The translations under genes and the position numbers were made by a program. 64,000 nucleotides of DNA. Source: Candidatus Enterousia sp. (GTDB lineage: Bacteria; Pseudomonadota; Alphaproteobacteria; Rs-D84). Every line of letters starts with the position of its first letter. The first letter of the stretch is position 1. Below the pieces are notes generated by a model. That model did no database searches and was not told where the DNA came from. It saw only the letters and a program-made list of their open reading frames with translations. The stretch spans positions 197,162 through 261,161 of the forward strand of contig JAZRBB010000002.1 in assembly GCA_045634865.1 (NCBI GenBank). Reading direction: 5' to 3'. Below are positions 9,555 to 62,548 of the stretch, in pieces.

Positions 9555-9587
9555 AAAAATACCGTCCAAAATTGACGGTATTTTTTT
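9555..9587. terminator. Bidirectional terminator between convergent acpS and the 640-aa gene
   Basis: aaaaaaataccgtcAAAATTgacggtattttttt is a hairpin flanked by an A-run and a T-run. Confidence 0.7.
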
Positions 9588-11508
9588 ATTCTTCATAATC
9601 ATAAAAATATTCTTCATCAGATTCTTCTACAAAACCGGCAGGTTCTTGATAATCTTGCTCTGACACAACCATATCATCATTTTTAGAACCAACATCATAT
9701 ACTGGTTTATTTACAGTAATTTCCTCTACATTTTCTTCCACAGGTTCCTCTTCAACAAAATCACCCGATGTCATAACCTGGGCAGGCACAGAATCCATTA
9801 TCACTGGCTCTGCTGGTTCCTCTTGGACATCTTCTGCAATTGGTTCGGCAGTTTCTTCAACTGTTTCTTCTGGCACAGGTTCAGCCACCACAGACTCTGT
9901 CTCTGCAGGTTCTGTCTCTTCTTCTACAAAAACGAATTCTTCTGGTTCAGTCTCTTTTTCTTTACTAACCTGGACAGGTTCAGTTGTTTCTTCTGGAATA
10001 ACTATTTCTTCTTGGGCGTTTTCAACGGGTTGTTCGTCAACAACTTTCTCTTCAACCACAGCAGCCAATAATGGTTTAGTTTTACCAACATGTTTCTGAT
10101 ATAGCCACAAAGTAAACACCGATAAAATAATCAAAACGACCAACAATAAATAATATACGAAAGTCGGTTTGGAACGATTGGTTTGTTCAGAAACAGATAT
10201 ATTAGTAGAACTAATCGGTGGAACAACTGGCGGAACAGGCATCACAGGCTGTGAATATTGTGGTTCATTATTCATAACAGGTTGCGGTTCTAATTTTGGT
10301 TGTTCTGCAACAGGTTCCATATTTTCCGCTGGTACCATTGATTCTAATACAGGTTTCGGTTCTGATACTGTCGGCAAAATTTCTTCATCATGAACAGGCA
10401 CCATAGATTCCAAAACAGGTTTTGGTTCTTCCAGATGTGGCGTGAACATTGGTGTTTCTGTTTCAATTTCAGGCACAGTCTCTGAAATACTTTCCGAATC
10501 GAATACCGGCTCCTTTTCTTCTGGCGCTGAAATATTCAACGACGGCGCATCAAAAGTGATCGGCTTGAAAGCAATATCTTCATTTAATATTTCTGGGTCT
10601 TTATCAAACAGCGGTTTAATATCACTATCTGCGTTTGCATCTTCGTCATCATCATCAATTTCTTCTTCAATCTCTTCATCATCATCAAAATCATCATCTT
10701 CCAATTCGTCTTCATCCGGTTCAATCTTTTGTATTTCATGCTTTGGTGCAACCATAACAGATTTTGATGTTTTCGGACTTTGTTGTATTTCCAGCGCAGG
10801 CTGATTTAATAAATCGCTGGCCAGTTCTGCATCAACTGTGGCAACCTCTAACCGTTTCTGTGCAGAATCCAGCCTTTTCTTGGCGCGTTTCAGTTTTTCA
10901 TTTGTTGCATCAATCTGAGATTCCACTTTCAGAATCTTGGATGCAGATTGTTTGGTCGGAACCTTTCCAATTTCTTTCTTTTGCGCAGATAATTTTGCAC
11001 GCAAAGTTTTAACACGTTCCTGCAAGCGAACAATTGTTTCTTTGGTTTTTACAATCGTGATATTAGTTTTTGCAATAGTTTCATTCGCAACATTAAGGCG
11101 AATCATCGCACTATGGCGCGCAGCAGAATCACGTAAAATATTCAACTGATTCAAATGTTCAGACAAATCATCACCAGCAATATACGCATCGATAAGATTT
11201 TCATATACAGACAAACCGGAATATTCGATATCAAGTTTTTGATATTTATTATCTTGCTTTGGACGAATCGTTTCCAGATCAACATCATATTCCCCAGAAA
11301 GTATTTCATCCCATTTTTTATCGCCCATTGGGTTTATAACTAATAACACATTAGGTTTGTTCTGATTGATAGTGTTATCCAACACAAACACCAAATCATC
11401 AGAATCATCATAGAAAGCATTGATTGCATTACCATCTATGTTATACGAACGCATATTCAATGTTCCGTATTCTGTTTCATTCACTATATCTTCTCTCTCG
11501 CCTATCAT
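9586..11508 (-). CDS. Hypothetical large acidic single-pass membrane protein (coiled coil, Asp/Glu-rich and Pro-rich segments, one transmembrane helix)
   Basis: 640-aa ORF directly downstream of gcrA on the same strand. Coiled-coil region ~aa 150-230, acidic stretch EDELEDDDFDDDEEIEEEIDDDDED, duplicated PKPVLESMVP, transmembrane segment FVYYLLLVVLIILSVFTLWLY. No recognisable enzymatic motif. Confidence 0.55.
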   Translation of the reverse strand: MIGEREDIVNETEYGTLNMRSYNIDGNAINAFYDDSDDLVFVLDNTINQNKPNVLLVINPMGDKKWDEILSGEYDVDLETIRPKQDNKYQKLDIEYSGLSVYENLIDAYIAGDDLSEHLNQLNILRDSAARHSAMIRLNVANETIAKTNITIVKTKETIVRLQERVKTLRAKLSAQKKEIGKVPTKQSASKILKVESQIDATNEKLKRAKKRLDSAQKRLEVATVDAELASDLLNQPALEIQQSPKTSKSVMVAPKHEIQKIEPDEDELEDDDFDDDEEIEEEIDDDDEDANADSDIKPLFDKDPEILNEDIAFKPITFDAPSLNISAPEEKEPVFDSESISETVPEIETETPMFTPHLEEPKPVLESMVPVHDEEILPTVSEPKPVLESMVPAENMEPVAEQPKLEPQPVMNNEPQYSQPVMPVPPVVPPISSTNISVSEQTNRSKPTFVYYLLLVVLIILSVFTLWLYQKHVGKTKPLLAAVVEEKVVDEQPVENAQEEIVIPEETTEPVQVSKEKETEPEEFVFVEEETEPAETESVVAEPVPEETVEETAEPIAEDVQEEPAEPVIMDSVPAQVMTSGDFVEEEPVEENVEEITVNKPVYDVGSKNDDMVVSEQDYQEPAGFVEESDEEYFYDYEE

Positions 11509-12144: not shown

Positions 12145-12216
12145 AATAAAAAGTCCTTGTGTTTATATCTGATATAATTGTATCATAAAAACGAATCGAA
12201 AGGCAAGAGAGAAAAC

Positions 12217-12678
12217 ATGATTTCTTATATATTTTTTTATGTGATTTTAATCGGCGCAATTTACTGTGCTGTCCGCATGGCAACCAATGATTTCAGGCAC
12301 CGCATCATACCAGACGTATACCTTTTTCCGTTTTTATTTGCAGGTTTATTGATTACGACCTTTTTCCCATGGCCTGTATCAATCGGTGATTCAGTTATCG
12401 GTGGTGCAATTGGATACTGTTTGGGACTGATTGTCGGATTTATATTCGAACACTTCCAGAAAAAGCAAAAATACCCAGCAATCGGTATGGGTGACATCAA
12501 ATTATTAGGGGCGGGGGGTATATGGCTTGGTACCATTGGTTTGGCGATTGCTATGGTTATTGCGTGCATATTATCTGTGATATGGGGAAAAAGAAAACAC
12601 CAAAAATATATCCCTTTTGCACCGTTCTTTTTAATGGGGGGATTTTTGTCTTTGATTATAATTCAATTTTTGATATAA
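12217..12678 (+). CDS. Type IV prepilin peptidase (A24 family, CpaA/TadV-like short form)
   Basis: Polytopic membrane protein with NDFRHRIIPD (first catalytic Asp) and GMGDIKLLGAGG (second catalytic Asp motif). ~154 aa from the MISYIFF start. Confidence 0.7.
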   Translation: MISYIFFYVILIGAIYCAVRMATNDFRHRIIPDVYLFPFLFAGLLITTFFPWPVSIGDSVIGGAIGYCLGLIVGFIFEHFQKKQKYPAIGMGDIKLLGAGGIWLGTIGLAIAMVIACILSVIWGKRKHQKYIPFAPFFLMGGFLSLIIIQFLI

Positions 12679-12682
12679 TCTG

Positions 12683-14593
12683 ATGAAGGAAAATATGAAA
12701 GCAGGAAAGATGAAATCTTTATTTATGTTCATAGTTGGCTGTTTTTACGCCATGTGCGCGCATTCAGCGGTTTCTCTTTTTTCGGATTATGGGCAAATCC
12801 AAAATGTCCAAAATTATTCTACAAACCCGTTTTGGTCACCAAACGCGCCATATAATCAAAAATTACCACAACCTGTGTATGTCCAGGGTAATGCTGTAAC
12901 CACCGAAGAATGCATAAATGTTATTCAATCCGCTGTTGCGTTTCAATGTGCTGCGCGCGATAATTGCAGAAACACCGCATTGACCGACATACGACCTGCA
13001 ATAATTGTTCAGTTGTCTAATCTACCTGGCAAGGCTTACAGTACCGCATGCGCGGGCTATCTGGACGGTGTGTTCGAATCGTACGTGGCTCAGTTTGGCA
13101 ATAATGCCCCTACGCGTCAGGTTGCATTTCCGGCTGGAACAGTTCCAAATTCAACATTAAATAATACAAACACAAACACGATTCAAATAAAAAATCCGTA
13201 TGAAGTTAAAACGCCCCAATGGCAACAGGAAATAGATGAACGAAGTCGTGAATTACAGGAATTACAGTCTGAAAATGGTGCGGGCAATTATGGATTGTCC
13301 GCAACTACGTTTCCAACGACATATAACGATTTGTCTTTCACTGACCGCATGGCAAACGAAGCAGCAGGTTATGCACCATACAAAGATAAAAGCGCATATA
13401 AAACAATAAATGTTAAAAGTGGTGACGAATGGTGCAAAGAACACCAAGGTTCCAAGGAATGTAAAGAATACGAAGAACAACAAAAATTGGCACAACAATC
13501 TAAGAATTCAACCAACCCAAACAACACTAAACAATCAACAACCACAAAACAATCAACAAACAAAGAAATACGTACTGATGCGGCAGAAATTGTTAAATTA
13601 CTGCAACCCGCTAACAAGGATCAAGAGTTCTTTTTTACTTCACTAGCGACAGATTACGTGACAGAAAAAGCAAAAAACTCATCGTTAGTTTTGGACAATC
13701 AGTTTTTATATGATTTTTTTTCTAGTAACAGTGGCGTTGATCGCATAAACACCTTCAAGGCTGGTTTACAAAACCTGGAATCTAAACAAGCAACCAAGGC
13801 AGCCAACATCGATATCAATTGGCAAGAAGCCGTAACCAAAATATCAACATTATTGGATGATAATAAAAAGTTATATGGCGCCATGGTATGCGAAAACAAT
13901 CGTTCTTATGAAGTTGGTATAGAAACGGCTTTGTGGGCAGCCACCGTAGGTGCTACAATTGCCACATTTTATGTTGGCGGTGCAGGTGGTGCAGGAACTG
14001 CAGCTGCTGGAACCGCGGCAAAAGTAGGAATTAAAACTCTTGCAAAAGCAGCGTTAAAACACGCTGTCACAACAGGGCTTAAATGGGCCATCTTAACTGC
14101 GGCTGGTGCCATTATTATAAATACAAAAGGTTCTTGGAATTATCCCAAAACTAACATTAATCAAACAAGTTTTGCCAAATCATCTGCAGGATTGCTTTAC
14201 AGTTTAGTTGACAGCGAACCAAGAACAGATATAGTGAATTGTCAAGGATTGGACGTAGCAGACCGAAAAAAATGTTACAGTGTATGCGGATACCCTGGCG
14301 CACCAAATGATGAACTGAACGAAAAAGTACTATCCGAAGTTATGGGTTCACGTTATTGTGTAAGCACAGAAGACTTTACTTTGTATGATATTAACACCAG
14401 AAAACCATTGATGATGACGTCAGCGCAATATAACCAAGTAATAGATAAACTGGCATTAATCAAAGACAAAGGTGGCTGTGATTGGAATGAAGATGACGTA
14501 GATATGTTTACAGGACGATATATTTATGATCCAAACACTATGGAACCGTCGTCATATTTATTGATTGAAAAAGTTGATCGTCTTGATGATTAA
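12683..14593 (+). CDS. Hypothetical secreted Cys-rich protein with a Gly/Ala-rich hydrophobic (glycine-zipper) segment
   Basis: Signal peptide MKSLFMFIVGCFYAMCAHSA. Thr/Asn/Gln-rich linker. GGAGGAGTAAAGTAAKVGIK...LTAAGAIIIN hydrophobic segment. Multiple Cys. Start ambiguous between 12683 and 12695. Confidence 0.6.
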   Translation: MKENMKAGKMKSLFMFIVGCFYAMCAHSAVSLFSDYGQIQNVQNYSTNPFWSPNAPYNQKLPQPVYVQGNAVTTEECINVIQSAVAFQCAARDNCRNTALTDIRPAIIVQLSNLPGKAYSTACAGYLDGVFESYVAQFGNNAPTRQVAFPAGTVPNSTLNNTNTNTIQIKNPYEVKTPQWQQEIDERSRELQELQSENGAGNYGLSATTFPTTYNDLSFTDRMANEAAGYAPYKDKSAYKTINVKSGDEWCKEHQGSKECKEYEEQQKLAQQSKNSTNPNNTKQSTTTKQSTNKEIRTDAAEIVKLLQPANKDQEFFFTSLATDYVTEKAKNSSLVLDNQFLYDFFSSNSGVDRINTFKAGLQNLESKQATKAANIDINWQEAVTKISTLLDDNKKLYGAMVCENNRSYEVGIETALWAATVGATIATFYVGGAGGAGTAAAGTAAKVGIKTLAKAALKHAVTTGLKWAILTAAGAIIINTKGSWNYPKTNINQTSFAKSSAGLLYSLVDSEPRTDIVNCQGLDVADRKKCYSVCGYPGAPNDELNEKVLSEVMGSRYCVSTEDFTLYDINTRKPLMMTSAQYNQVIDKLALIKDKGGCDWNEDDVDMFTGRYIYDPNTMEPSSYLLIEKVDRLDD

Positions 14594-14668
14594 GGGTATG
14601 GAATAAAACCTTGTTGTGTTTAATATAAAAAATTATTATAATGAACATGTGCAAGGAAAGGTTTATAC

Positions 14669-14983
14669 ATGAAAAAAATATTATTCATCATAATTACATT
14701 TATATCTATGTGCGGCAATACGTTCGGGTACCAGGTATTATCTACCAAAGAATTTGGCAAAAACGATGCAAAGAATCAAAACGTCGTTGTTAAATGCACA
14801 ACCGATACTGGCAAGTTGTCTGCCGAAACATGTTCTTTGCGCAGATATGCAAAATGCACAGACAAAGAAAAAAAGAATTGTAATCAATGGCAACCTTGGC
14901 GCGACTTACGCGATTCCAATGCTACATATGCAGATTGGAAATCCGCTGCATCTGCTTGTTGCAAGAAAAAGGGGTTAAGGTAA
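14669..14983 (+). CDS. Small secreted Cys-rich protein (104 aa, 8 Cys)
   Basis: Signal peptide MKKILFIIITFISMCGNTFG. No known motif. Confidence 0.5.
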   Translation: MKKILFIIITFISMCGNTFGYQVLSTKEFGKNDAKNQNVVVKCTTDTGKLSAETCSLRRYAKCTDKEKKNCNQWQPWRDLRDSNATYADWKSAASACCKKKGLR

Positions 14984-15148
14984 AGTTGGCTAATCAGCCA
15001 CAAGCATTTAATGTGGGCGGACTCCCTCGCACGCATATAAAATATGCGGCTGCGGGCAAAACGTAACGATTTGGTCGCGTTTTACTTACCAAATCTACTT
15101 ATTTTCGAACCAAACAACTTCGTTGTACGGTCGAATACCACAAACTAT

Positions 15149-15208
15149 ATCCACCACAAAAAAAGAACCACACAAAGTGGTTCGTTTTTTGTGGTGGATG
15201 TGGGCGGA
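15149..15208. repeat. Large perfect hairpin (atccaccacaaaaaaagaaccac...gtggttcgttttttgtggtggat) followed by a 22-bp duplicate of the tRNA-Val 3' end (ttttgtggtggatgtgggcgga)
   Basis: The 22-mer at 15187-15208 is identical to 15362-15383, which is the 3' end of the intact tRNA-Val. A second similar hairpin lies at ~15325-15366. Confidence 0.7.
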
Positions 15209-15366
15209 TTGGTCTCGTTCACACTCGACCTCACTACGCTCATCGGCATAAGCCGACCGCCATACTTCCGTCTGGCTTTCGCTTGTAGTCGAACCGCCAG
15301 CCGCCGTTTCTTCGTCACCCCCAACCACAAAATAAAAAATAGGGCATTCGCCCATTTTTTATTTTG

Positions 15367-15443
15367 TGGTGGATGTGGGCGGACTCGAACCGCCGACCCC
15401 TACGATGTGAACGTAGTGCTCTAACCAACTGAGCCACACATCC
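15367..15443 (-). tRNA. tRNA-Val (anticodon CAC)
   Basis: Reverse complement GGATGTGTGGCTCAGTTGGTTAGAGCACTACGTTCACATCGTAGGGGTCGGCGGTTCGAGTCCGCCCACATCCACCA. Cloverleaf with anticodon loop TTCACAT. Confidence 0.85.
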
Positions 15444-15602
15444 AAAAACCTAATAAAAAACCGCGTTTTGCGGTTATAATGCTTTTGTCCGTATTCGCTA
15501 TCGCTACGGCGAGACACTCAATTTTCTTAATTGTGCGCTTGTAATCACCCACAAAATTTTTTAATTTTGCGGGGCCCGAAGCGCGCGCAATAACGAAAAT
15601 CG

Positions 15603-15690
15603 GTGGTGGGGATAGTGGGACTTGAACCCACACGGTTGCAATAACCAAAGGATTTTAAGTCCTCAGCGTGTACCATTCCGCCATATCCCC
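15603..15690 (-). tRNA. tRNA-Leu (anticodon TAA), long variable arm
   Basis: Reverse complement GGGGATATGGCGGAATGGTA...GAGGACTTAAAATCCTT...GGGTTCAAGTCCCACTATCCCCACCA. Confidence 0.8.
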
Positions 15691-15741
15691 AGGACTTTTT
15701 TACACCCATTTGCCCTCAGAATACCTCTGATACAAAAAGGG

Positions 15742-15817
15742 TGGTGGAGCTGATGAGATTCGAACTCACGACCTCTGCATTGCGAACGCAGCGCTCTACC
15801 AACTGAGCTACAACCCC
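15742..15817 (-). tRNA. tRNA-Ala (anticodon CGC)
   Basis: Reverse complement GGGGTTGTAGCTCAGTTGGTAGAGCGCTGCGTTCGCAATGCAGAGGTCGTGAGTTCGAATCTCATCAGCTCCACCA. G3:U70 identity pair present. Confidence 0.85.
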
Positions 15818-15841
15818 ATGCTTCACATGCTTACAAACACA

Positions 15842-15928
15842 TGGTGGGCATAAGAAGACTCGAACTTCCAAGGTATTGCTACCACTAGTACCTGAAACTA
15901 GCGCGTCTACCAATTCCGCCATATGCCC
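15842..15928 (-). tRNA. tRNA-Leu (anticodon CAG), long variable arm
   Basis: Reverse complement GGGCATATGGCGGAATTGGTAGACGCGCTAGTTTCAGGTACTAGTGGTAGCAATACC..GGAAGTTCGAGTCTTCTTATGCCCACCA. Confidence 0.8.
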
Positions 15929-16067
15929 GTAAAAAGCACAAGGAATAATAAAACATATTCGCAACTTTTGCAACAAGAAAAAACAAAAAATTTACAAAAA
16001 ATATATTAAAAACTATGTAATTTTACTTGCCCCATATGGCATATTTCTGATAAAATTATAGCCAGAG

Positions 16068-18584
16068 ATGAAGAAAATTCTGACTTTTGTATTTACCACA
16101 ATTGTCTGCGTGTTTGGCGCGGACGCTGCAATACGTGACGAAAACACCACACAACGCGGAAAAAACACATCTGTCACAACAACACAAAACACACGTTCGA
16201 TAACTAATCGTTCTGCAATCAAGAAATCTGTTTCAGCGCGCACAGCGGGTTCTGTGAGCGTATTAAAATCACGCTCGGCATCACAAAATGTTGCGACACG
16301 AACACCGATGATACAAACAACAAAATCGCAACGTAGTGCCACAGTTAAAAAGCAAAACGTATTATCGCGTGCGGCAACCCAGACCAGTAATATCAATACT
16401 ACCGAAACACGCACTGGTGCCGAATACGAACAATGCAAAACCGCATTTTTTACTTGTATGGATCAGTTCTGCCAACTGAAAAACGATAATTTCAGAAGAT
16501 GTTCTTGCAATGACAAGGTGTTTAAGTACCAGGAAATTTCTGACACATACCAAAGCGCGAATGAACGTTTAACTGAATTCACTGAAAATCTTGATATCAT
16601 TGGCATGACAGCAGCCCAGGCAACCGCAATGAAAACCTCTACCGAGGGTGAAGACGCTTTGACCGAAGATAAATCGGCGTCCAAACAATTACTCCAGGCA
16701 ATTATGAATGCTATCAAGGGCGAAGATTCAACGGTTGGTGGAAAATATCAGAATCTGAACAGTTTGGTTATTTCGCCAGATATGTCAAACGCGTTTGGTA
16801 TGAATGATTATGGTCAAATTATCGCGTCTTATAACGGTGCAAATTTATACAAGGCTGTATATCCACAATGTCGTAATGCTGTCAAAGAAGATTGTAATAA
16901 CGCATCCTTGCAACGCGCAGTAAATGCATATTTAATGGCAATTGAACAAGATTGCAATACTGTTGAATCTGCTTTGTATGAAAAACAGAAAACATTAAAA
17001 GCATCAACATACGAAAGCAGTGCTATGCTGGATTTGGCACGCGTAGAAAATCGCCAAACACATAATTCTGATGATATTTCAACATGCTTGGCCAATGTAG
17101 AATCCGCAATCCAAAGTGAAGAGGTTTGTGGTGTCGCATATCATAAATGCTTGGATAACGGACAATTTATTGATGTAATGACTGGTGCGCCACTGACCGG
17201 TGTGAAAAACTTTTATGAATTGGGAACCTTGTTGACATTTAAAACAAATGAAAATATTCAGAACCAAAAATTATCTACTATCACAAGCAACAGGGATTTT
17301 GTTCAATTTTTTGAGAACAAGACCAAGAAATTTGCAACAGACGCTTTGGATAAATGCACAGAAAAATCTGATTATGTGTGGCAACAATATCTGGACCGCG
17401 CCTTGTTGGACATATACTATGCACAACAATCAAAGGTTAAAACCATTAAAAACAGTTGTTTTGATTTAGTAGCTGCATGTTATGACAACCAAACAGCCGC
17501 CATTGAAACTGCCATGGCTAATTTAACTGGGGAATACTCTATAGATCTTCAACCCGCTACATTGAAATTAACCCAAGAAATGTGCGACGATTACATAGAA
17601 TCTTGCAACAGCATGTTCGCTGGTGATGTAATAAAAGATTATATGAACAAAAAAACAGTGTCTGATTCTGAAAAAGCATGCCGTAAAATCGCCCAAAATT
17701 GTTTTGATAGTTTTGGCGGTGCTGGATACGAAAACTTTTATTCATTGCAAAACGATGTAATCAAAGCTGGCAAAGCACTGGATTGGTTCACTTTATACAA
17801 TTACGATGACAGCGGTAAAATTTTATCGCCCTGTGCCCAAGAATTAAATAATACCGCAGGTTGCAATTCCAAAGAAGTACTGGAACATACATTTGGTGGC
17901 TTTGATAAACATGCTGATGGTGATTACAGGTACATAGAAGACCATATCGACTATGACAGACATCTACGTTCATCAGGCGTTGCGAGTGAGGTTTATACAC
18001 AAATTATGGCAAGTTTGTCTGCCCAGTGTGAACAGATTCATGGTTTCTTTGTAGAGGCACACCTTGCAACATCTTATGGTTATACACAGAGCAACTTTTG
18101 TCAGATAAATAGTGGTAGTTTTATTTTTGTCGCAGGCAACAACAACACTTTGGGGTATTGGTACAATTTCAAAAAAGATGAAAACATGTGTCCGAAGGGG
18201 TATGCTTCCAAGATAGATACCCAGTCATGGGGTATGTGTTCATGTTGGGAAAATGGAAATTATCGCAGCAAAAACGGCCAAACAGAAACATGTATGCCAT
18301 TGCTACCTGTACCAAATGATGCGGTTGATAACTACACAATTTCTGACGGCGACCTCTGCACAGATGACGCAGTTAAAGACGCCACCAGCACAACAGGAGG
18401 TAAACAATACACTTATGATGTATGGTGTCAACAAACCGTTATGTCATCCAGAAGGCAAATCTGTCCCAGAATGCAAATAACAACCACCGACGACAACTCA
18501 CAAAAGATTTTTTGTGCATACAACAAAAACGACACGAAGAAGGTCATCAACGCAACAAAAGATCAAAAATTGCACAATCAATAA
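16068..18584 (+). CDS. Hypothetical large secreted Cys-rich protein (838 aa)
   Basis: Signal peptide MKKILTFVFTTIVCVFGADA. Ser/Thr/Arg-rich low-complexity N-terminal region, then many Cys. Promoter-like TTACTT-N17-GATAAAAT upstream. Confidence 0.6.
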   Translation: MKKILTFVFTTIVCVFGADAAIRDENTTQRGKNTSVTTTQNTRSITNRSAIKKSVSARTAGSVSVLKSRSASQNVATRTPMIQTTKSQRSATVKKQNVLSRAATQTSNINTTETRTGAEYEQCKTAFFTCMDQFCQLKNDNFRRCSCNDKVFKYQEISDTYQSANERLTEFTENLDIIGMTAAQATAMKTSTEGEDALTEDKSASKQLLQAIMNAIKGEDSTVGGKYQNLNSLVISPDMSNAFGMNDYGQIIASYNGANLYKAVYPQCRNAVKEDCNNASLQRAVNAYLMAIEQDCNTVESALYEKQKTLKASTYESSAMLDLARVENRQTHNSDDISTCLANVESAIQSEEVCGVAYHKCLDNGQFIDVMTGAPLTGVKNFYELGTLLTFKTNENIQNQKLSTITSNRDFVQFFENKTKKFATDALDKCTEKSDYVWQQYLDRALLDIYYAQQSKVKTIKNSCFDLVAACYDNQTAAIETAMANLTGEYSIDLQPATLKLTQEMCDDYIESCNSMFAGDVIKDYMNKKTVSDSEKACRKIAQNCFDSFGGAGYENFYSLQNDVIKAGKALDWFTLYNYDDSGKILSPCAQELNNTAGCNSKEVLEHTFGGFDKHADGDYRYIEDHIDYDRHLRSSGVASEVYTQIMASLSAQCEQIHGFFVEAHLATSYGYTQSNFCQINSGSFIFVAGNNNTLGYWYNFKKDENMCPKGYASKIDTQSWGMCSCWENGNYRSKNGQTETCMPLLPVPNDAVDNYTISDGDLCTDDAVKDATSTTGGKQYTYDVWCQQTVMSSRRQICPRMQITTTDDNSQKIFCAYNKNDTKKVINATKDQKLHNQ

Positions 18585-23988: not shown

Positions 23989-24434
23989 GCAACCAAGATA
24001 TCACAACCGTTTATTTGGCCGCAGACCATCGTGGGGTAGGGCTGAAATTATATCTGTATGAAATGTTGATGGCGGACGGTTATCATGTTGTCGATTTAGG
24101 GACAAATGATTTGAATACGCCTGTCGATTTTCCTGATATTGCAAAAAAATTGGCAGATGAAATGCTGGATGATTCACAATCACGCGGTATTTTAATTTGC
24201 GGAACAGGGGCTGGCATGGAAATTGCTGCGAATCGGTACCGTCATATTCGTGCATCACGTTGTGAAAGACCAGAACAGGCACGCGACGATCGTTTTCATG
24301 ACGACATAAACGTTTTAACTTTGGCTGCGGACGATATAGACATTGAAATTGCGTTTTTATGCGCACAGTCTTTTTTGGAAAGTCCATTTGACAACTGTGA
24401 AAAACGTATCCGCAGAATTGAAAAAATATCATAA
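23985..24434 (+). CDS. rpiB: Ribose-5-phosphate isomerase B (RpiB/LacA/LacB family)
   Basis: TVYLAADHRGVGLK...ILICGTGAGMEIAANR is the RpiB signature. 149 aa. 4-nt overlap with the bactofilin gene. Confidence 0.8.
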   Translation: MSNQDITTVYLAADHRGVGLKLYLYEMLMADGYHVVDLGTNDLNTPVDFPDIAKKLADEMLDDSQSRGILICGTGAGMEIAANRYRHIRASRCERPEQARDDRFHDDINVLTLAADDIDIEIAFLCAQSFLESPFDNCEKRIRRIEKIS

Positions 24435-24436
24435 AA

Positions 24437-24466
24437 AACACCCCGCAAAATGCGGGGGATTTTTTA
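24437..24466 (+). terminator. Rho-independent terminator after rpiB
   Basis: aaaaacaccccgcAAAAtgcgggggatttttt. Confidence 0.75.
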
Positions 24467-24474
24467 TATAGGGA

Positions 24475-25239
24475 TTATAAACTTTTGGCTTGTTCTCTTT
24501 TAATCATCTCTACTATATGATTTGTGGCTCTGCTGGCACGTTCTCTTTGCGAGGTCCAGTGATCATCCTCACGCTTAGGTGCCTTTTCTACACAGATACC
24601 AAGTAATTTATTTATCAAGTTAGCATTTGATTTTGCACGATACCAATCAGACTTTTCAACACTTTCCATAACCCAACTTAAACCATGTTTTATTTCGTCA
24701 GCATTTTTGTTTGCTTTTTTGTAATCTCGGGTTGCTATGATTTTTATCAAACCAATTGTATTCGAATCTATTGGTAATCCTGCCCCCAAAGCACCGGACA
24801 CATCATACAATGTTGCTTTTGGATTATAAGCCAATTTCTGTAACAATCTGTTACCCATTTCTTCTGGCAACCAAGACCACAAAGCTTTGAACATTATGTA
24901 TTCTTTGTCGTCCGACAACAAACACAACAAATCCATAACACGCTTACCGTATATTGTATGAACAAAATCAACTTTTTCTTTATCGGTTTTTTTCACATAT
25001 TCTGTTGCATTTTTCAGAACACTAAATGTTTTTATCAATTCTTTACAAGTTGATTGCAAACTTTCATCTTGTGGATTTTTTGCAACAATTTCATTAAAAG
25101 CGTCAAAGAAAATATTAATATTCAAATAATTCTTTGGGTTGTATGACGCAATAACTTTGTCAACCACAGCAATAAACACCTTGTCTTCCAAAGAATATGG
25201 TTTTCTGTGATACATTATAAAATCGTTTTGTTTATTCAT
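24475..25239 (-). CDS. Hypothetical cytoplasmic protein (254 aa from MNKQNDF)
   Basis: ORF with RBS AAGGGG 8 nt upstream of the ATG at 25239. No motif recognised. Confidence 0.5.
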   Translation of the reverse strand: MNKQNDFIMYHRKPYSLEDKVFIAVVDKVIASYNPKNYLNINIFFDAFNEIVAKNPQDESLQSTCKELIKTFSVLKNATEYVKKTDKEKVDFVHTIYGKRVMDLLCLLSDDKEYIMFKALWSWLPEEMGNRLLQKLAYNPKATLYDVSGALGAGLPIDSNTIGLIKIIATRDYKKANKNADEIKHGLSWVMESVEKSDWYRAKSNANLINKLLGICVEKAPKREDDHWTSQRERASRATNHIVEMIKREQAKSL

Positions 25240-25325
25240 AATTTTAACCCCTTGATTTTTTGGTTGCGTATAATATAGCCAAAATATTAAAAATGTCAAG
25301 ACTTATATTGTGTTTTTTTATAATA

Positions 25326-25352
25326 TGCAAAAAAACGCCCTGAAATCAGGGC
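25326..25352 (-). terminator. Rho-independent terminator downstream of leuS
   Basis: On the minus strand: cgccctgatttcagggcg followed by a T-run. Confidence 0.65.
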
Positions 25353-25359
25353 GTAATCA

Positions 25360-27759
25360 CTACTTTTTAATTACAAAATTGACCAATTTATTTGGAACAA
25401 CAATTGTTTTGATAATTGTTGCACCAGCCAATTGACGTTCTGCCGCCTTTTTGGCTGCTTCTATCAAATCAGATTCAGATATACCAACCGGTACAACAAA
25501 ATCATTTGCACGTTTACCATTTACAGAAACAACAATCGTCATATCACTGGCAACCAACTTTGATTCATCGTATGTTGGCCATGGCTCAAAGACCAATATA
25601 TCTTTGTGTCCCAACTTTTCCCACATTTCTTCGGTCAAATGTGGTGCAAAAGGATTCAACAACTGAATCAGTATTTCATAAGCCTTGCGTGGCATTTTAC
25701 CGCCTGGAAATTCGTTTATAAATTCCATCATCGCAGAAATAGAGGTATTAAAGCCCATATTTTCAATACGATTTGTGACATCCGCAATCAATTGATTTAC
25801 TAATCTATCTTGTTCTGGTGTTAATTCGTCATCTGTTAAATTGTCAGAAAAAGCCTCGATTCGTTTCAAGAACCTCTGAACACCAGCTAGTGCCCCTTCG
25901 GTCCAAACAGTATTGTTTTTCCACGGGCCCAAAGATAAAATAGTCACACGTGCAGAATCTGCACCGACCCTGTCCAATAATTCAGCAGTCATAAACCCAT
26001 TGTTACGCGATTTTGACATTTTATAGCCATCACTGCCCATCACCAAACCTTGCGCAGTACGTTTTGCATACGGCTCTGGGGTATTTACCAAACCCAAGTC
26101 ATATAATGCATGGTGCCAGAATCTTGAATAAATCAAATGACGCGTGTTATGTTCGTGTCCGCCATTATAATGATTGACTGGCATCCATTTTTCCATTTGT
26201 TCGCGCGAACAAAATTCTTTGTCATTTTTTGGATCAAGATATCTTAAATAATACCAAGATGATCCGGCCCACCCAGGCATAGTATCCGTTTCACGCTTTG
26301 CAGGTCCACCACATTTGGGGCAGGTTGTATTTACCCAATCTGTCGCACGTGCTAATGGGCTTTCCCCGTCATCAGTTGGACGATAATCCATCATATATGG
26401 TTGCATCAGCGGAAGCTGTGATTCTGGTACAGGTTGCCACCCACATTTTTCACAATAAACCAATGGAATTGGTTCACCCCAATACATTTGACGTGAAAAT
26501 CCCCAATCTTTCAATTTATACTTTGTTGCCCCACGTGCAAAACCATGTTCGGTTCCATATTTAATAGCAGCATCTATCGCTTCCTGTTTGCCCATACCGT
26601 TTAAGAAATCGGAATTGATATGTTCGCCATCACCTTCCCATACCTCGTCTGGTTTACCGCCAGCCAATACAGGAATAATCTTTAACCCAAACTTTTTTGC
26701 AAAATCCCAATCGCGCGAATCGTGTGCAGGCACCGCCATAATCGCACCAAAGCCATAGTCTGCCAACACATAATCAGATATAAATACTGGGGTTTCAACA
26801 CTGTTATATGGATTGATTGCTTTGATACCCTTTAATTCGACGCCTGTTTTTTCCTTGGTTGCATCAGTTCTTTCGATTTCAGATTTCGCCGCAGATTCTT
26901 TGATATACTTTTCAACTTCATCTTTATTTGTTATGCGACCTTCATCCAACCATTTACGAACCAATTTATGTTCAGGCGCCAACACACAGAATGTCACACC
27001 AAATATAGTATCAACACGCGTTGTATAAACCGTCATGATATCATCGCCAACCTTGAAATCAACCTCTGCCCCAGTTGACTTACCAATCATATTGATTTCG
27101 TCTTTCTTGATGCGTTCATCAAAATCAACATCTTTCAGACCATCTAATAATTTTTCCGCATAATCACCAAGACGCAAATTCCACTGCAATTTCAATTTCT
27201 TTTCAACCAAGCCATGACAACGATCACATTTACCATCTTCTAATTCTTCATTGGTCAAAGTAGTTTTGCAATTCGGGCACCAATTCATTGGTAATTCGGA
27301 TTTATACGCCAAGCCATTCTTGAAAAATTGTATAAACATCCATTGGGTCCATTTAATATATTCTGGATCAGAAGTCGCGACACGCGTTTCTGGGTCAACA
27401 GACCAACCAGCCTGGTCAATAACATTTGAATACGACTTTTTCAGATCTTCAGCAATTTCTGCAGGATGACGTCCAATTTTTGTGGCGTAATATTCCGCCG
27501 TAATTCCCATGGCATCAAATCCCATAGGCCACAACACATCATACCCCAAACGACGACGGAAACGGGACATAACATCCATACCTGTATAAACCAACATATG
27601 TCCAGCGTGTAAACCTGCACCCGATAAAAAAGGAAACTCTGTCAAACTGTAAAAACGTTTTTTAGAACCATCATCTTTTGGTATAAACGCACGTTCATCA
27701 CGCCAACGTTTTTGCCATTTGGCTTCACGTTCTTTTATTTTTTGCATTTCGTCAGACAT
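25360..27759 (-). CDS. leuS: Leucyl-tRNA synthetase
   Basis: HAGH class I motif (LHAGHMLVYTGMD). KMSKS present (YKMSKSRNN). LeuS-specific GSSWYYLRY. Start MSDEMQKI at 27759 with RBS AAAGGA. Confidence 0.88.
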   Translation of the reverse strand: MSDEMQKIKEREAKWQKRWRDERAFIPKDDGSKKRFYSLTEFPFLSGAGLHAGHMLVYTGMDVMSRFRRRLGYDVLWPMGFDAMGITAEYYATKIGRHPAEIAEDLKKSYSNVIDQAGWSVDPETRVATSDPEYIKWTQWMFIQFFKNGLAYKSELPMNWCPNCKTTLTNEELEDGKCDRCHGLVEKKLKLQWNLRLGDYAEKLLDGLKDVDFDERIKKDEINMIGKSTGAEVDFKVGDDIMTVYTTRVDTIFGVTFCVLAPEHKLVRKWLDEGRITNKDEVEKYIKESAAKSEIERTDATKEKTGVELKGIKAINPYNSVETPVFISDYVLADYGFGAIMAVPAHDSRDWDFAKKFGLKIIPVLAGGKPDEVWEGDGEHINSDFLNGMGKQEAIDAAIKYGTEHGFARGATKYKLKDWGFSRQMYWGEPIPLVYCEKCGWQPVPESQLPLMQPYMMDYRPTDDGESPLARATDWVNTTCPKCGGPAKRETDTMPGWAGSSWYYLRYLDPKNDKEFCSREQMEKWMPVNHYNGGHEHNTRHLIYSRFWHHALYDLGLVNTPEPYAKRTAQGLVMGSDGYKMSKSRNNGFMTAELLDRVGADSARVTILSLGPWKNNTVWTEGALAGVQRFLKRIEAFSDNLTDDELTPEQDRLVNQLIADVTNRIENMGFNTSISAMMEFINEFPGGKMPRKAYEILIQLLNPFAPHLTEEMWEKLGHKDILVFEPWPTYDESKLVASDMTIVVSVNGKRANDFVVPVGISESDLIEAAKKAAERQLAGATIIKTIVVPNKLVNFVIKK

Positions 27760-33430: not shown

Positions 33431-34525
33431 TTATCTGCGCATACCGACAGTAAATTCATCGCCCCAATCAGCAATCTTTTGTCCACCAACCGTGCAATTC
33501 AATGCGTCAAACCCTTTTTCAACCTGACTTTTCTTGATAAGAACACCAGACACAACACCACCGACAGTTCCTAATACTACACCCGCGGTCAAGTCAGATG
33601 CCAAGCGAACACCATTGAAAGAGCCATCTGCATTTTTCCAAACACTTTTATCAGAATCCACTTTGCTGAAAAACTCTTTCAATCTTGCATGTGCCGCGCT
33701 AATTTTTTTAGAATCAGTATTTGCATTTTTATCTGTATCAGCCACAACACGAGCACTTGATGTATCAGGTGTTTCCACAGAAACATCACTAAAATTGACA
33801 GATGCTATCGAAGTCCCTTTACATATACTGTCAATTTTATCTTTATATTTAAGCTCTATTTTTCTGGCTATTTTTTCTGCATCGTCATTTTTATCAATTT
33901 TAAGATTATCTACCCTGAAAGAGCCGGTCTTTCCGTTATCACACCTAACTGTGATATCGCCTACAAATTCACAATCGCCATTTTCACACACTGTCCCCTG
34001 GGGAACATTACACGTTTCACAAAAACATCCGACAAAAGCTTTACCACCACTCATTTTGACAACACTGGTTGGTTTTAGCATTTTGTTAGCCTCAATATAA
34101 TCTACAATCTTTGGTTTACAAATTCCGTCACCAGCACAATTCTTTTCACATTTTTTCATTGCTTCTGCTTCTGAATAACAATAGCCTAAAATACGCGCAT
34201 TTTGGGTTTTAGAAACATCATATTTGGTTTCAAACACCAATGGCATTACTTGACCATCAGGACACTTTCTAGCAACGCAACGCAATTCACCACTATTAAA
34301 TTTTTTGCAAACACCGTCTTGCCCTGCACCATTTCCATCTTGCTCACAATCCTGGTCTACTTTTTTACAAGTAGGTTTTAATTCAACTTTTTTGTATTTA
34401 ATCCATGGACAAACATCATCATCATTTGATGTCAAACCAGATTGCACAGTTTCTGCATTGGAATCCTGGGCGACAACGCCACCAAATATAACCATCACAG
34501 ACAAAATAGAAATAAACTTCTTCAT
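33431..34525 (-). CDS. Hypothetical secreted Cys-rich protein with conserved C-terminal module (shared with 34675-36675)
   Basis: Signal peptide MKKFISILSVMVIFGGVVAQ. Many Cys. The C-terminal ~85 aa are nearly identical to the paralog downstream. Confidence 0.65.
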   Translation of the reverse strand: MKKFISILSVMVIFGGVVAQDSNAETVQSGLTSNDDDVCPWIKYKKVELKPTCKKVDQDCEQDGNGAGQDGVCKKFNSGELRCVARKCPDGQVMPLVFETKYDVSKTQNARILGYCYSEAEAMKKCEKNCAGDGICKPKIVDYIEANKMLKPTSVVKMSGGKAFVGCFCETCNVPQGTVCENGDCEFVGDITVRCDNGKTGSFRVDNLKIDKNDDAEKIARKIELKYKDKIDSICKGTSIASVNFSDVSVETPDTSSARVVADTDKNANTDSKKISAAHARLKEFFSKVDSDKSVWKNADGSFNGVRLASDLTAGVVLGTVGGVVSGVLIKKSQVEKGFDALNCTVGGQKIADWGDEFTVGMRR

Positions 34526-34674: not shown

Positions 34675-36675
34675 TTATCTGCGCAGACCGACACTGAATT
34701 CATCACCCCAATCAGCAACTTTCTGCCCATTAATGGTGCAATTCAAAGCATCAAATCCTTTTTCAACTTGGCTTTTCTTGATTAACACACCAGATACAAC
34801 ACCACCAACCGTGCCCAATACTACACCCGCAGTCAAATCAGATGCCAAGCGCACACCATTGAATGAACCATCTGCATTTTTCCAAACACTTTTATCAGAA
34901 TTCACTTTGCTGAAAAACGCATCAAGATTTGACTTTGCCTTGGTTAATCGCTCTACTTTTCTGCGTTGTTCTTCGGCATCTTCTTGTTTTGGCAGTTTGT
35001 CTGCGTCATCATCTTGGATGTCATTTGAACAATTCTTATCTGCCAATTTCTTTGCCATATCTGCATTACCTGCAAATTTTTTATTAAAGTCTGCACAAGT
35101 AAGCCCATTTAGATCTTCCTTGCTCAAATTGATTTCCATACTGATTCCTTTGGAACAAGCAATCGTATATTTACACCCAGCAACAACATCAGACTTTTCA
35201 ACACATCTTGCAGCATTCCAAGTCTTAGTATCATCAGGCAACTGTGTTTCAGGAACAACACAATAACAACTACCATTATCTATATCACCAGTCCATTTTG
35301 TGTTTTTACCTGCTTTACAACACGCTAAACGTTTAGGATGTCCAGCATATAAATCATTACAAGTTTTCTTTGCACCCGGCTGTTCGTTATCTGGTTGTTC
35401 ATTTTTCGGTGTCGTCTTCTTGGCATTAGGATCAGGAACACAATCATTATTTTCCCATTTCATACCAGGATCTATACATCTCCATTTCCAACATGGTACA
35501 GTATGTCCGTTTTCCGTTTCCCAAAATGCAACAGGTTCATAATGAGCACCCTTTGCAGGAAAATTATACTTGACACCTCCTTCCTTGCACCAGCGAAGTT
35601 CTGGATCAGACCAATCATCATCCATTCCTTTGCCTTTCCATCCTTGATCCGTCTTATATACCCCACCCATAGGCCCTTTTTGTACACAATAATTGATATA
35701 ACCAAATTTATTACTGTGTATAGCGCGACCAATAGCCAGATTTTCCGTATAAGGCCCCATCAAAGCAGCATTTCCATCCGTAACATTACAACAATGTGTC
35801 CACTGCGGGTAAACATCGCTTTTTACACAATCAGACTGAGAAGCAACACGGGTCAGCATTAAACCACCACCAATCGCCGCACCAACACCAATTGCAACAC
35901 CATATCCAACTTGGCCGGCCATAGGAATCGCATTCAACGCCATTGCTATACCCCCCGCAGCCTTTGCGCCCCCCACAGCACCTTTAAATACACCAGACGC
36001 ACCAACTTCACCCTCTTCAAGGAAAGTATTTTTTACATCGTCTAAACCCTCTTTCTCAAGCATCAAACCCATACCAACTTGCAATGCCTGTCCAGCTGTT
36101 ATTTTCCCCACACCCTCATAACCAATCTTCTGTGCGATTCCACCAGTACCACCACCTGCCGCACCGGCACCAGATGCACCACCTGCTGTACCACCGCTCA
36201 TACGCTCTTTGGCTATTTTTTCAGCATATTTATTTGCTTTATCCAATTCTTCTAACTTATATGTTTTTATATTCTCACCTTTTGCACTAATTTGATTACC
36301 TGCTTGATCATAAAATCTATTTCCTTTCTTTGTTAATTTTTCCATGGCACCCGTTTCTCTGTTAACACCCCAATGAGTATTTGTAGCTGCAGTATTTGCA
36401 CTTGGCGTCGCAGAGGGTGTTGAATTTGGTATTGACGGTTCCAATTTAGGAGTAAGATTTTTAGTAAAGTCTGGGTCTATAAGATCCGCCTCTTTTATTG
36501 CAGAACCCATTTTATCTACGAATTTGCCCTCTGGAGTCATATACACGTCTCTTAAATAATTTTCGCCATCTGTCGAGGGTGCATAATATTTTGTTAACTG
36601 CCAATCTGAAACAGCAGACACAGCAGGACTAATTCCAAACACAATTACAGATAACATAAAAAGTATTTTTTTCAT
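34675..36675 (-). CDS. Hypothetical secreted protein with a Gly-rich glycine-zipper region, Cys-rich domain and conserved C-terminal module
   Basis: Signal peptide MKKILFMLSVIVFGISPAVSA (start at 36675, RBS AGAAGGGA). GGTAGGASGAGAAGGGTGG...GVAIGVGAAIGGG region. C-terminus paralogous to 33431-33700. Confidence 0.65.
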   Translation of the reverse strand: MKKILFMLSVIVFGISPAVSAVSDWQLTKYYAPSTDGENYLRDVYMTPEGKFVDKMGSAIKEADLIDPDFTKNLTPKLEPSIPNSTPSATPSANTAATNTHWGVNRETGAMEKLTKKGNRFYDQAGNQISAKGENIKTYKLEELDKANKYAEKIAKERMSGGTAGGASGAGAAGGGTGGIAQKIGYEGVGKITAGQALQVGMGLMLEKEGLDDVKNTFLEEGEVGASGVFKGAVGGAKAAGGIAMALNAIPMAGQVGYGVAIGVGAAIGGGLMLTRVASQSDCVKSDVYPQWTHCCNVTDGNAALMGPYTENLAIGRAIHSNKFGYINYCVQKGPMGGVYKTDQGWKGKGMDDDWSDPELRWCKEGGVKYNFPAKGAHYEPVAFWETENGHTVPCWKWRCIDPGMKWENNDCVPDPNAKKTTPKNEQPDNEQPGAKKTCNDLYAGHPKRLACCKAGKNTKWTGDIDNGSCYCVVPETQLPDDTKTWNAARCVEKSDVVAGCKYTIACSKGISMEINLSKEDLNGLTCADFNKKFAGNADMAKKLADKNCSNDIQDDDADKLPKQEDAEEQRRKVERLTKAKSNLDAFFSKVNSDKSVWKNADGSFNGVRLASDLTAGVVLGTVGGVVSGVLIKKSQVEKGFDALNCTINGQKVADWGDEFSVGLRR

Positions 36676-36751
36676 GATTTTTTCCCTTCTTTTCAATTTA
36701 TTCATGTATCTTATTTTATCATAACACACACACTAAAAAAAGCGTTTTTTA

Positions 36752-48924: not shown

Positions 48925-49075
48925 AATAACCACCCCCAATTATAAATCCTTATTTAGTAGTCTGATTGAGCGATTATCACAAAAAATACTTGACATATAT
49001 GTTTTTTGTATTATATTTTGATTATCAAGAGAAAAATCTTGAACACAAAAACAACTAAACCAAAAGGAAAAACAC

Positions 49076-49516
49076 ATGTTTTCAGAAAAAGACTACGTAG
49101 ATGCTTTAAAATTTTGTAAAGAACAAAACTACCCTTTGGACAAACTAGGAGTTGTCACAAGAATCCGCCCAAATCCCTGCCGTCGAGAGCAAGGCTTTCA
49201 TTATATAGAATTTGTAAGACTAAGTTCATTTCTACGTTATGAGACCACGGAACACTTTTCTAGCTGCATTATAGGTAACTATCAAGTAAAAAATGGTGCA
49301 GAACATAGTTGTTGCGAGATGAATGCCGACGGTGAAGTAGATTTAAAATTTTACACCGCTATTGGTGATTTAATTTTACTTGGAGAACATAAAGGTACTT
49401 ATGGAATCTATTGTGATATTGTAAAAAATATTAGACATGAAATGATGCTTGAAAACTTAAAAAAAGCAAAAAATAAAGTTTTTGGCAACCTAGTAGAAAA
49501 TCAAAAAAAGAAATAA
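49076..49516 (+). CDS. Hypothetical protein (146 aa, 7 Cys)
   Basis: ORF with an AAAGGA RBS, followed by a terminator at 49524-49550. Confidence 0.45.
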   Translation: MFSEKDYVDALKFCKEQNYPLDKLGVVTRIRPNPCRREQGFHYIEFVRLSSFLRYETTEHFSSCIIGNYQVKNGAEHSCCEMNADGEVDLKFYTAIGDLILLGEHKGTYGIYCDIVKNIRHEMMLENLKKAKNKVFGNLVENQKKK

Positions 49517-49567
49517 AAAATAGATAAAACCCTGAAATTTTCAGGGTTTTTCTTTACACAATAAATC

Positions 49568-60529: not shown

Positions 60530-60551
60530 TTGTTAATACCTTTCTTGTTTA

Positions 60552-61310: not shown

Positions 61311-61409
61311 ATCAAATCCTTTTGTTATGTTTGCATATAATATAGACTATTTATAACATTTGTCAAGAGATTTGTCAAAAAAAATATTAGAGCGCTATAA
61401 AAAAACGCC

Positions 61410-62450: not shown

Positions 62451-62548
62451 ATTATGGGTTATAAAACAAACAAAATCGGGATAAAAAAGTCAACAAACAA
62501 AAATTAAAAGTTGCAATCGTAGGGTTTATGATATAAAATCTGGGACAT

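Follow-up and report, generated by a model that had tools for sequence, protein, structure and literature searches.

A predicted exported protein of Candidatus Enterousia with a conserved cysteine-rich helical module and a fast-diverging C-terminal domain

Results

A cysteine-rich protein with an export leader between a tRNA cluster and lpxB

We analyzed a stretch of 64,000 nucleotides (nt) from Candidatus Enterousia sp. (GenBank assembly GCA_045634865.1, contig JAZRBB010000002.1, positions 197,162 to 261,161; hereafter the window, by whose numbering positions are given), in which a gene for an 838-residue cysteine-rich protein lies between a cluster of four tRNA genes and lpxB. The helical body of this protein (hereafter the target) is constrained like a housekeeping enzyme, while its tail and C-terminal domain are among the fastest-changing sequences of the region. 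The reading frame is present exactly as a first-pass annotation of this DNA had described it; no earlier start follows the in-frame stop upstream of its ATG, and the alignment with orthologues begins at M1. The gene and its parts are listed below, with amino acids (aa) numbered from M1 and model confidence given as the predicted local distance difference test score (pLDDT).

16068..18584, plus strand: complete coding sequence from the open-reading-frame listing, ATG start, 838 aa plus stop
16068..16130, plus strand: Sec-type signal peptide, aa 1-21 (MKK, hydrophobic core, cleavage between A-D-A and A; sequence inspection)
16131..16415, plus strand: Thr/Ser/Arg-rich basic tail, predicted disordered, aa 22-116 (composition, family statistics, low pLDDT)
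16416..17777, plus strand: conserved module predicted to be helical and Cys-stapled, aa 117-570 (second model, invariant residues, low ratio of nonsynonymous to synonymous rates, dN/dS)
16590..16805, plus strand: conserved segment inside the helical module left unfolded by the models, aa 175-246 (pLDDT <50 in both)
17778..18581, plus strand: predicted C-terminal alpha/beta Cys-rich domain, aa 571-838 (pLDDT ~90; hypervariable surface)

The target is rich in Thr, Ala, Ser and Asn and contains 31 Cys (3.7%), of which 30 lie past the leader and ~30 are invariant in 34 orthologues. At its N-terminus, MKKILTFVFTTIVCVFGADA followed by A, a basic n-region precedes a hydrophobic core of 13 residues, and the A-x-A site that follows is kept across the family (leader consensus MKKIL...ADAAVRD). 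The leader is the sole strongly hydrophobic segment of the protein. Both the cysteine richness and the export leader named in the first-pass annotation were thereby borne out, the leader being of Sec type as read from the sequence. The window also holds a gene for signal peptidase I (LepB) at 54358-55296, and the target would be exported via its Sec leader and cleaved by signal peptidase I after A-D-A. A lipoprotein was rejected by inspection: the residues ahead of C14 read T-I-V, and a Val in position -1 is unfit for the lipobox [LVI][ASTVI][GAS]C.

The Ser/Thr/Arg-rich N-terminal region reported in the first pass was likewise found, with 21% T, 14% S and 9% R over aa 26-125. Ten Arg, spaced 5-14 residues apart, each lie within a loose (T/V)(A/S)-R-(T/S/A)-A context, and no DNA-level tandem repeat was found in the tail-coding region. 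Across the family the tail has a median of 124 aa, ~14 Arg, ~3 acidic residues and 36% Ser+Thr; one paralogue (at locus L089) displays the motif overtly in its tail, as an array of over a dozen TSARSAT units.

Domain-specific rates of evolution

Over 84 related loci the median identity of the target was 49%, versus 65% for LpxB, 84% for LpxA and 65% for the M23 peptidase, and was similar to that of other lineage-specific envelope proteins (41-48%). The nearest relative, locus L005, has neighbouring genes 96-99% identical to those of the window. Against it, the whole target gave a dN of 0.075 and a dN/dS ratio (omega) of 0.16, versus a dN of 0.003-0.018 and an omega of 0.01-0.07 for the neighbouring genes. 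Within the target, aa 121-480 showed a dN of at most 0.03 and an omega of at most 0.05, while aa 480-570 and 633-838 showed a dN of 0.1-0.37 and an omega of up to 0.52 (0.14-0.52 for the C-terminal part). In segments of these fast regions dS reached ~1, which suggests imported or recombined alleles. At the nucleotide level, identity was 93-98% in the flanks but dropped to 85% and farther on to 73% in the 3' half of the gene (range 73-86%), and the dip was confined to that 3' half.

The same partition recurred in 12 pairs of closely related genomes, drawn from four or more lineages, in which LpxA and LpxB are 90-98% identical. In these pairs the helical module was 86-99% identical, the C-terminal domain 58-89% (median 70%) and the tail 49% (median); the helical core (aa 117-480) was as conserved as LpxA and LpxB. 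Among orthologues, conservation was 0.83 in the helical module, which carried no indels, and 0.53-0.59 in the C-terminal domain, which carried indels in its loops; indels were restricted to the tail and the residues past 570. Thus, from the close-pair rates and the placement of indels, the body is constrained like a housekeeping enzyme, while head and tail are among the fastest-changing sequences of the region. The first-pass description of a fast-evolving protein therefore holds for the C-terminal domain and the tail and fails for the helical core.

Structure models and cysteine pairs

A first AlphaFold model, built on 34 orthologues, had a pLDDT of 63 and resolved the C-terminal domain alone; a second, built on 113 sequences including distant paralogues, reached 75. 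The second model predicts a disordered tail (aa 16-114; pLDDT <35), long helices at 118-174, 258-348 and 406-557 (single helices of 52-55 residues; pLDDT 80-95) and a confident C-terminal alpha/beta domain at ~571-838 (pLDDT ~90). Residues 175-246 are unmodelled yet are among the best-conserved parts of the protein (majority-residue frequency 0.80-0.90 and no gaps among orthologues), and possibly form a partner-binding or induced-fit region.

The helical module opens with Y120-x2-C123-x6-C130-M-D-Q-F-C135 ... R-C145-S-C147. The spacing C-x6-C recurs in five consecutive Cys pairs (123/130, 354/361, 464/471, 506/513 and 538/545), versus 0.86 expected under random placement (P = 0.0014). Four of the five lie wholly on helices predicted by the second model and the fifth (354/361) partly; nine of the ten cysteines are invariant superfamily-wide, and C545 is nearly so. 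Since residues at i and i+7 share one helix face, staples that pair adjacent helices would be the natural reading. In the C-terminal domain, Cys 589, 599, 654, 678, 708, 724, 726, 742, 764, 787 and 799 are invariant in orthologues, and the mature Cys count is even in 87 of 117 orthologues. The cysteines of the target may pair as disulfides; the Sec-type leader, together with the lack of a heme or cluster motif, argues against a cofactor role. Furthermore, the 64-kb window alone encodes six exported Cys-rich proteins with no assigned function, an indication that the export compartment is oxidising.

A superfamily with a common N-terminal module

Besides one 100% identical protein, a word-indexed protein search returned over 900 relatives, of which the top 120 were all full length, 56-85% identical and unnamed; orthologue matches span 95-100% of the length at at least 56% identity. 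An exhaustive profile search of 1.84 billion representatives (E up to 1e-3) matched 760 of them, ~30 over the full length. In most of the 760 the shared part is limited to profile positions 1 to ~513-540, which cover leader, tail and helical module; these proteins are 700-1260 aa long and carry other C-terminal regions. A scan of GTDB with one genome per species gave 191 relatives; the 80 loci retrieved from among these all came from rumen, gut or faeces metagenome-assembled genomes labelled Alphaproteobacteria or Candidatus Enterousia, which agrees with the earlier view of the protein as lineage-specific.

Over 113 sequences the invariant positions are mostly Cys, together with Y120, C123, C130-M-D-Q-F-C135, R144-C145-x-C147, G194-E195, D295-C296, R325 and N333; a C-terminal core of L650, C654, G659 and W721-G722-x-C724 is also common to them. 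The target carries the signature of this superfamily, which comprises an MKK(I/L)... leader, a Ser/Thr tail of 84-153 aa studded with Arg, the motif Y-x2-C-x6-C-M-D-x-F-C ... R-C-x-C-S and the invariant positions farther downstream, and it matches a profile of distant members with an E of 4e-147. Judged by its sequence, it is a "type 1" member of this unnamed superfamily of Cys-rich helical proteins: its match to the type is collinear and full length, C-terminal domain included, and its locus lies between the four-tRNA cluster and lpxB-lpxA.

A "type 2" group, one of whose members is named Ca. Enterousia avicola, shares ~30% identity with the target. At the type 2 locus, types 3 (~850 aa) and 4 (~700 aa) occupy the minus strand and are followed on the plus strand by infA, type 2 and a ~240-aa Cys-rich protein, except that L090 has infA on the minus strand. 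Type 4 carries a Gly-zipper hydrophobic segment, and types 3 and 4 both end in CEDI(V/N)M. An autotransporter (a faint Chlam_PMP match) comes next in L086, L087 and L088, and OmpA-family genes were called near it in L086 and L087. In L089, four paralogues form one co-directional array.

L086 4894-15796: paralogue cluster around infA
L087 4717-15682: paralogue cluster around infA
L088 2774-16128: paralogue cluster around infA
L090 2655-11612: paralogue cluster around infA
L089 1-11488, co-directional: four-paralogue array

The target is accordingly placed, by sequence comparison, as one of at least four apparently ancient paralogue types. The cluster of paralogues beside infA, with its small Cys-rich protein and autotransporter, is suggestive of an envelope structure with several components. 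A Big_2 Ig-like domain, which is typical of surface proteins, forms the C-terminal end of one distant relative. A second paralogue was sought inside the 64-kb window, and none was found. Among the records retrieved, two loci of the Enterousia type (orthologue, lpxB and lpxA) are labelled "uncultured Muribaculaceae", namely L070 (OZ246409.1, a 716,531-bp chromosome) and L080, and one type 2 protein is labelled Lachnospiraceae; such labels are probably taxonomic errors.

Searches for known families

The target matched no family in Pfam, NCBIfam, PADLOC or PHROG, and at E up to 1 Pfam yielded just two chance-level matches (SPAR and KPP10_Orf10). Against Pfam, 34 distant relatives gave sporadic accessory matches only (the one Big_2, and weak Flg_new, DUF7631 and Mucin). 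A sequence search of the PDB with three profiles returned RNase A at an E of 0.07, judged to be noise from Cys composition, and nothing else, and the best Foldseek match among viral structures had an E of 0.08. Clear homology to a housekeeping periplasmic protein, which the first-pass annotation had named as evidence that would count against its reading, did not emerge from the Pfam, NCBIfam and PDB profile searches. The family thus lacks a Pfam model, a solved relative and, among these searches, a fold match, and is apparently novel in fold.

Several specific identities were rejected. Membership of the chlamydial OmcB family was set aside for want of a Chlam_OMP6 or DUF11-type Pfam match, and a Sel1-like-repeat Hcp for want of a Sel1 match in the target; Pfam showed no Sel1 in 28 distant relatives (alignment A2) or in six further ones either. 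An F-type TraN-like outer-membrane protein was dismissed on the lack of a Pfam match and on the neighbours, which are housekeeping genes with no tra or type IV secretion genes. A type V autotransporter adhesin was discarded on the lack of an Autotransporter match and on the C-terminus, a mixed alpha/beta Cys-rich domain; the autotransporter near the type 2 paralogue at other loci is a separate gene.

The tRNA cluster, the flanks and gene order

The features on the tRNA side of the gene are as follows.

15367-15928, minus strand: four-tRNA cluster Val-cac, Leu-taa, Ala-cgc, Leu-cag (ARAGORN and Rfam)
15929..16067, no strand assigned: divergent intergenic region from tRNA-Leu(cag) to the coding sequence, with promoter-like hexamers on both strands
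15005..15215, no strand assigned: duplicated tRNA-Val 3'-end fragments (15187-15215 and a weaker one at 15005-15028; repeat families D1 and D2)

The target gene is divergent from the tRNA operon and begins 139 nt from its 5' end. The first pass had placed the gene directly downstream of the four tRNAs; they do adjoin it, but they lie on the minus strand, and the gene is not co-directionally downstream of them. Candidate promoters in the intergenic region are TTGCCC-18-TAAAAT at 16027-16056 (plus strand) and TTGCAA-17-TATTAT at 15973-15945 (minus strand); the totals of the promoter and terminator scan did not exceed shuffled expectation, and the hexamers are candidates only. Rfam gave no RNA families besides the tRNAs.

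The 3' end of tRNA-Val (15324-15390 region) has an exact 22-nt copy 175 bp away at 15187-15208 and the weaker copy at 15005-15028. Each fragment adjoins a hairpin (I1, I3), a terminator-like hairpin lies at 15165-15183, and the fragments resemble att scars. The gene had been described as flanked by the tRNA cluster and by tRNA-remnant repeats. The remnants exist, but they sit past the cluster, on the side away from the target gene, whose other neighbour is the convergent lpxB, 22 nt away and followed by lpxA.

The position of the target gene is fixed. LpxB adjoins the orthologue in 74 of 84 related loci, and the same four tRNAs occur within 1 kb upstream in ~40 of the 43 loci with a full upstream flank. 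In relatives the tRNA cluster itself shows inversions and insertions of 1-6 kb (L001, L002, L017, L038-L040, L046-L049, L057 and L080); in L001 and L002 an integrase island lies between tRNA-Val and tRNA-Leu(taa), and the target gene is intact on the conserved side. On this comparative evidence, the four-tRNA cluster is a recurrent hot spot of integration and rearrangement and an ancient neighbour of the target gene.

The codon-usage and GC comparison proposed in the first pass as a check returned native values: the GC content of the target is 0.395, its third-position GC (GC3) 0.361 and its codon-usage distance 0.098, versus window means of 0.386, 0.313 and 0.113. The remaining window is mostly housekeeping (RpsA, Cmk/Adk, GcrA, LpxB/A, M23 peptidase, LeuRS, HisRS, PrfA, UvrA, RodZ, LepB and RNase III). 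An identity as genomic-island cargo was rejected on the native composition, the fixed position, and the placement of islands and scars elsewhere in the tRNA cluster.

Other features of the window

On the far side of the tRNA cluster, 12178-14983 (plus strand) encodes a CpaA-like prepilin peptidase (166 aa) and then exported proteins of 636 and 104 aa, in an order kept upstream of the cluster in L003, L004 and many other loci. The 636-aa protein has 14 Cys, a low-complexity middle and a Gly/Ala-rich hydrophobic segment at ~aa 410-470, the 104-aa protein has 7 Cys, and neither has a family match. Further leader-bearing Cys-rich proteins are encoded at 33431-34525 (minus strand; 364 aa, 18 Cys), 34675-36729 (minus strand; 684 aa, 20 Cys) and 56657-59230 (plus strand; 857 aa, 22 Cys). 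By hhalign, the exported Cys-rich proteins of 636, 684 and 857 aa are unrelated to the target family. Exported Cys-rich proteins seem to be a heavy investment of this small genome.

A second sharp divergence from L005 lies at 24242-25441, where nucleotide identity is 52-55% in a 93-98% backbone; it contains a reading frame at 24475-25299 (minus strand; 274 aa) with no family match, and the frames of relatives at this place differ in length. Two stretches, 49000-52700 and 60000-62500, are low in GC (0.32-0.34 versus 0.39). The former holds a 327-aa ankyrin-repeat protein (51729-52712, minus strand) and a 455-aa protein with no assigned function; in L090, too, a protein with ankyrin repeats lies close to the paralogue cluster. 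Bacterial ankyrin repeats often indicate contact with eukaryotic cells. Finally, 9586-11508 (minus strand) encodes a 640-aa protein with no Cys, no leader and weak matches of coiled-coil type (JetC/MukB-like, tape measure), which is kept beside gcrA in related loci at 38-58% identity.

Discussion

The reading that we favour, with somewhat less than even confidence, is that the target is a Sec-exported, disulfide-rich protein of the envelope or cell surface that belongs to the core of the Candidatus Enterousia lineage. Cleavage between A-D-A and A would yield a mature protein in three parts: i) a flexible, strongly basic Ser/Thr/Arg tail of ~95 residues, built of degenerate SARSA-like motifs, which would tether the protein electrostatically to an anionic polymer, be it the cell's own lipopolysaccharide, peptidoglycan or a partner surface; ii) an elongated bundle of very long helices pinned by C-x6-C pairs, which would be the invariant stalk or assembly module of the superfamily; iii) a Cys-knotted alpha/beta domain at the C-terminus, whose scaffold would be fixed and whose surface and loops would diversify fast. 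This head would be exposed and contact a ligand or partner, under pressure from phage, host immunity or partner specificity. As a member of a multi-paralogue system, the target may help to build a larger structure. What the data show is the gene, its domain layout, the family, the conserved gene order, the native composition, the lack of known homologues or folds among the searches and the rate differences between domains; export, disulfides, surface exposure, tethering by the tail and any adhesive function are inferred. The adhesin or host-interaction role suggested in the first pass is plausible on that footing.

Several points weigh against this reading: i) no beta-barrel, canonical lipobox, sortase or type IX secretion signal was found in the target, the Sec leader being the only signal; ii) omega never exceeded 1 (maximum 0.52), so that the faster evolution of the C-terminus could reflect relaxed constraint rather than diversifying selection; iii) the other paralogue types show no parity bias in Cys (122 even versus 121 odd counts, the commonest being 29); iv) the lineage reportedly lacks a respiratory chain, so that the classical DsbA/DsbB-quinone pathway is uncertain in it, Dsb genes having been sought in the window only; v) the sharing of one genome by type 1 and the type 2-4 cluster rests on taxon names.

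An alternative that we consider unlikely, though worth keeping in view, is a strictly periplasmic, lineage-specific factor of structure or envelope biogenesis, such as a periplasm-spanning scaffold or a disulfide-cross-linked layer, whose ends drift because they are less constrained. An omega below 1 everywhere fits such a factor, as do a core single-copy gene fixed beside lpxB-lpxA, a Sec leader as the only signal and the lack of any recognised outer-membrane targeting or secretion signal; the modelled long helices and the ~95-residue tail could together span the periplasm. Yet with lpxB convergent on one side and the tRNAs divergent on the other, the synteny of the gene implies no operon link, and the sharply local divergence, with dS of ~1 in a ~95% identical backbone, resembles allele exchange, which is commoner in exposed proteins. 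The Big_2 domain on a relative and the paralogues adjoining an autotransporter also speak for a surface location. Improbable, in our judgement, is a secreted effector or toxin with polymorphic-toxin logic, in which a conserved long-helix N-terminal module would serve delivery or translocation and a variable C-terminal domain would carry the activity. The shared N-terminal module and differing C-terminal regions of the superfamily have that outline; a polymorphic toxin system was nevertheless rejected, since there is no toxin family match, the downstream gene is the convergent lpxB and no immunity gene is present.

Still less probable is that the cysteines bind metal (Zn or Fe-S) or perform redox chemistry, which would make the target an extracytoplasmic metal or redox protein of an anaerobe. 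The organism is indeed an anaerobic gut bacterium with no respiratory chain, the C-x-C and C-x4/6-C motifs are invariant, and odd Cys counts occur in other paralogue types. On the other hand, the leader is of Sec type with no twin-arginine motif, and a Sec rather than a twin-arginine translocation leader is unusual for cofactor-loaded exported proteins. Moreover there is no CxxCH, known metal-cluster motif or family match, the cysteines are spread across 700 residues on helices in staple-like i/i+7 pairs, and three quarters of the orthologues have even counts. As for a horizontally acquired adhesin on a tRNA-associated genomic island, an origin hinted at in the first pass, we regard it as highly improbable. 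The gene does adjoin a tRNA cluster with att-like remnants of tRNA-Val, and relatives do carry integrase islands nearby; but the islands and scars are found among the tRNAs or past them, where the tRNA 3' ends lie, on the side away from the gene. The gene itself occupies the same site in 74 or more genomes, is native in composition, and is distributed vertically with an identity that tracks its neighbouring genes. For annotation, proximity to tRNA genes thus does not mark the target gene as foreign.

Candidatus Enterousia belongs to the order Rs-D84, whose genomes are below 1 Mb and lack a tricarboxylic acid cycle and respiratory chain (PMC12306168). The lineage has few recognisable transporters and lacks most biosynthesis, a partner-dependent lifestyle has been proposed for it, and how these widespread, uncultured gut and rumen bacteria acquire resources is not understood (PMC12306168). 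Essentially all sampled genomes retain this one 838-aa protein at the same locus, and several large paralogues per genome (on the basis of taxon labels) are a major investment for an organism of ~850 genes. Therefore, the family is a strong candidate for the machinery behind the Enterousia lifestyle. A wider proposal, doubtful at present, is that the target and its paralogues form an undescribed, fold-novel, multi-component surface or envelope apparatus with stapled stalks, hypervariable heads and polyanion-binding SARSA-repeat tails. Such an apparatus would attach these tiny-genome gut Alphaproteobacteria (Rs-D84/Enterousia and relatives) to a partner cell or host mucosa from which they live, and would be key to their dependent lifestyle. 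The family is in any case a concrete target for structural and functional work, and its pattern of conserved stalk and variable head offers a handle for strain typing, partner specificity, and phage or immune pressure.

Comparison with known systems

The target family is a new family of a known general kind, and nothing yet shows an unprecedented function. In its proposed working it would most resemble Cys-rich proteins of envelope or adhesion that combine a constant scaffold with a variable surface, the nearest analogues being OmcB, the Plasmodium DBL domains and Hcp or twin-CXnC helical staples; it belongs to none of these, as each defining feature that was checked was absent from it. Its outline recalls that of polymorphic toxins and variable-tip surface proteins, in that an N-terminal module is common to hundreds of proteins while the C-termini are divergent or accreted and change fast between close strains; unlike polymorphic toxins, the target has no toxin domain or immunity gene, and its orthologues show no cassette replacement. 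Helicobacter Hcp (Sel1-like) and twin-CX9C/CX3C hairpins likewise have regular Cys pairs on helices that pin neighbouring helices, a pairing that is predicted for the target; the target differs in having no Sel1 or CHCH Pfam match and no 36-residue periodicity, and in its other spacing.

OmcB is a Sec-exported, Cys-rich envelope protein of a reduced-genome bacterium, in which a basic N-terminal stretch binds a polyanion (glycosaminoglycan) and a Cys-rich body cross-links the envelope. The target also has a basic N-terminal region and a Cys-rich body. This likeness is an architectural analogy only: OmcB is beta-rich, while the target is modelled mostly as long helices with an alpha/beta head, and the two have no sequence match. 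The Duffy-binding-like (DBL) domains of Plasmodium PfEMP1 and EBA proteins resemble the predicted design in a further respect, being disulfide-stapled helical modules that are extracellular, belong to multigene families and present a variable surface on a conserved scaffold.

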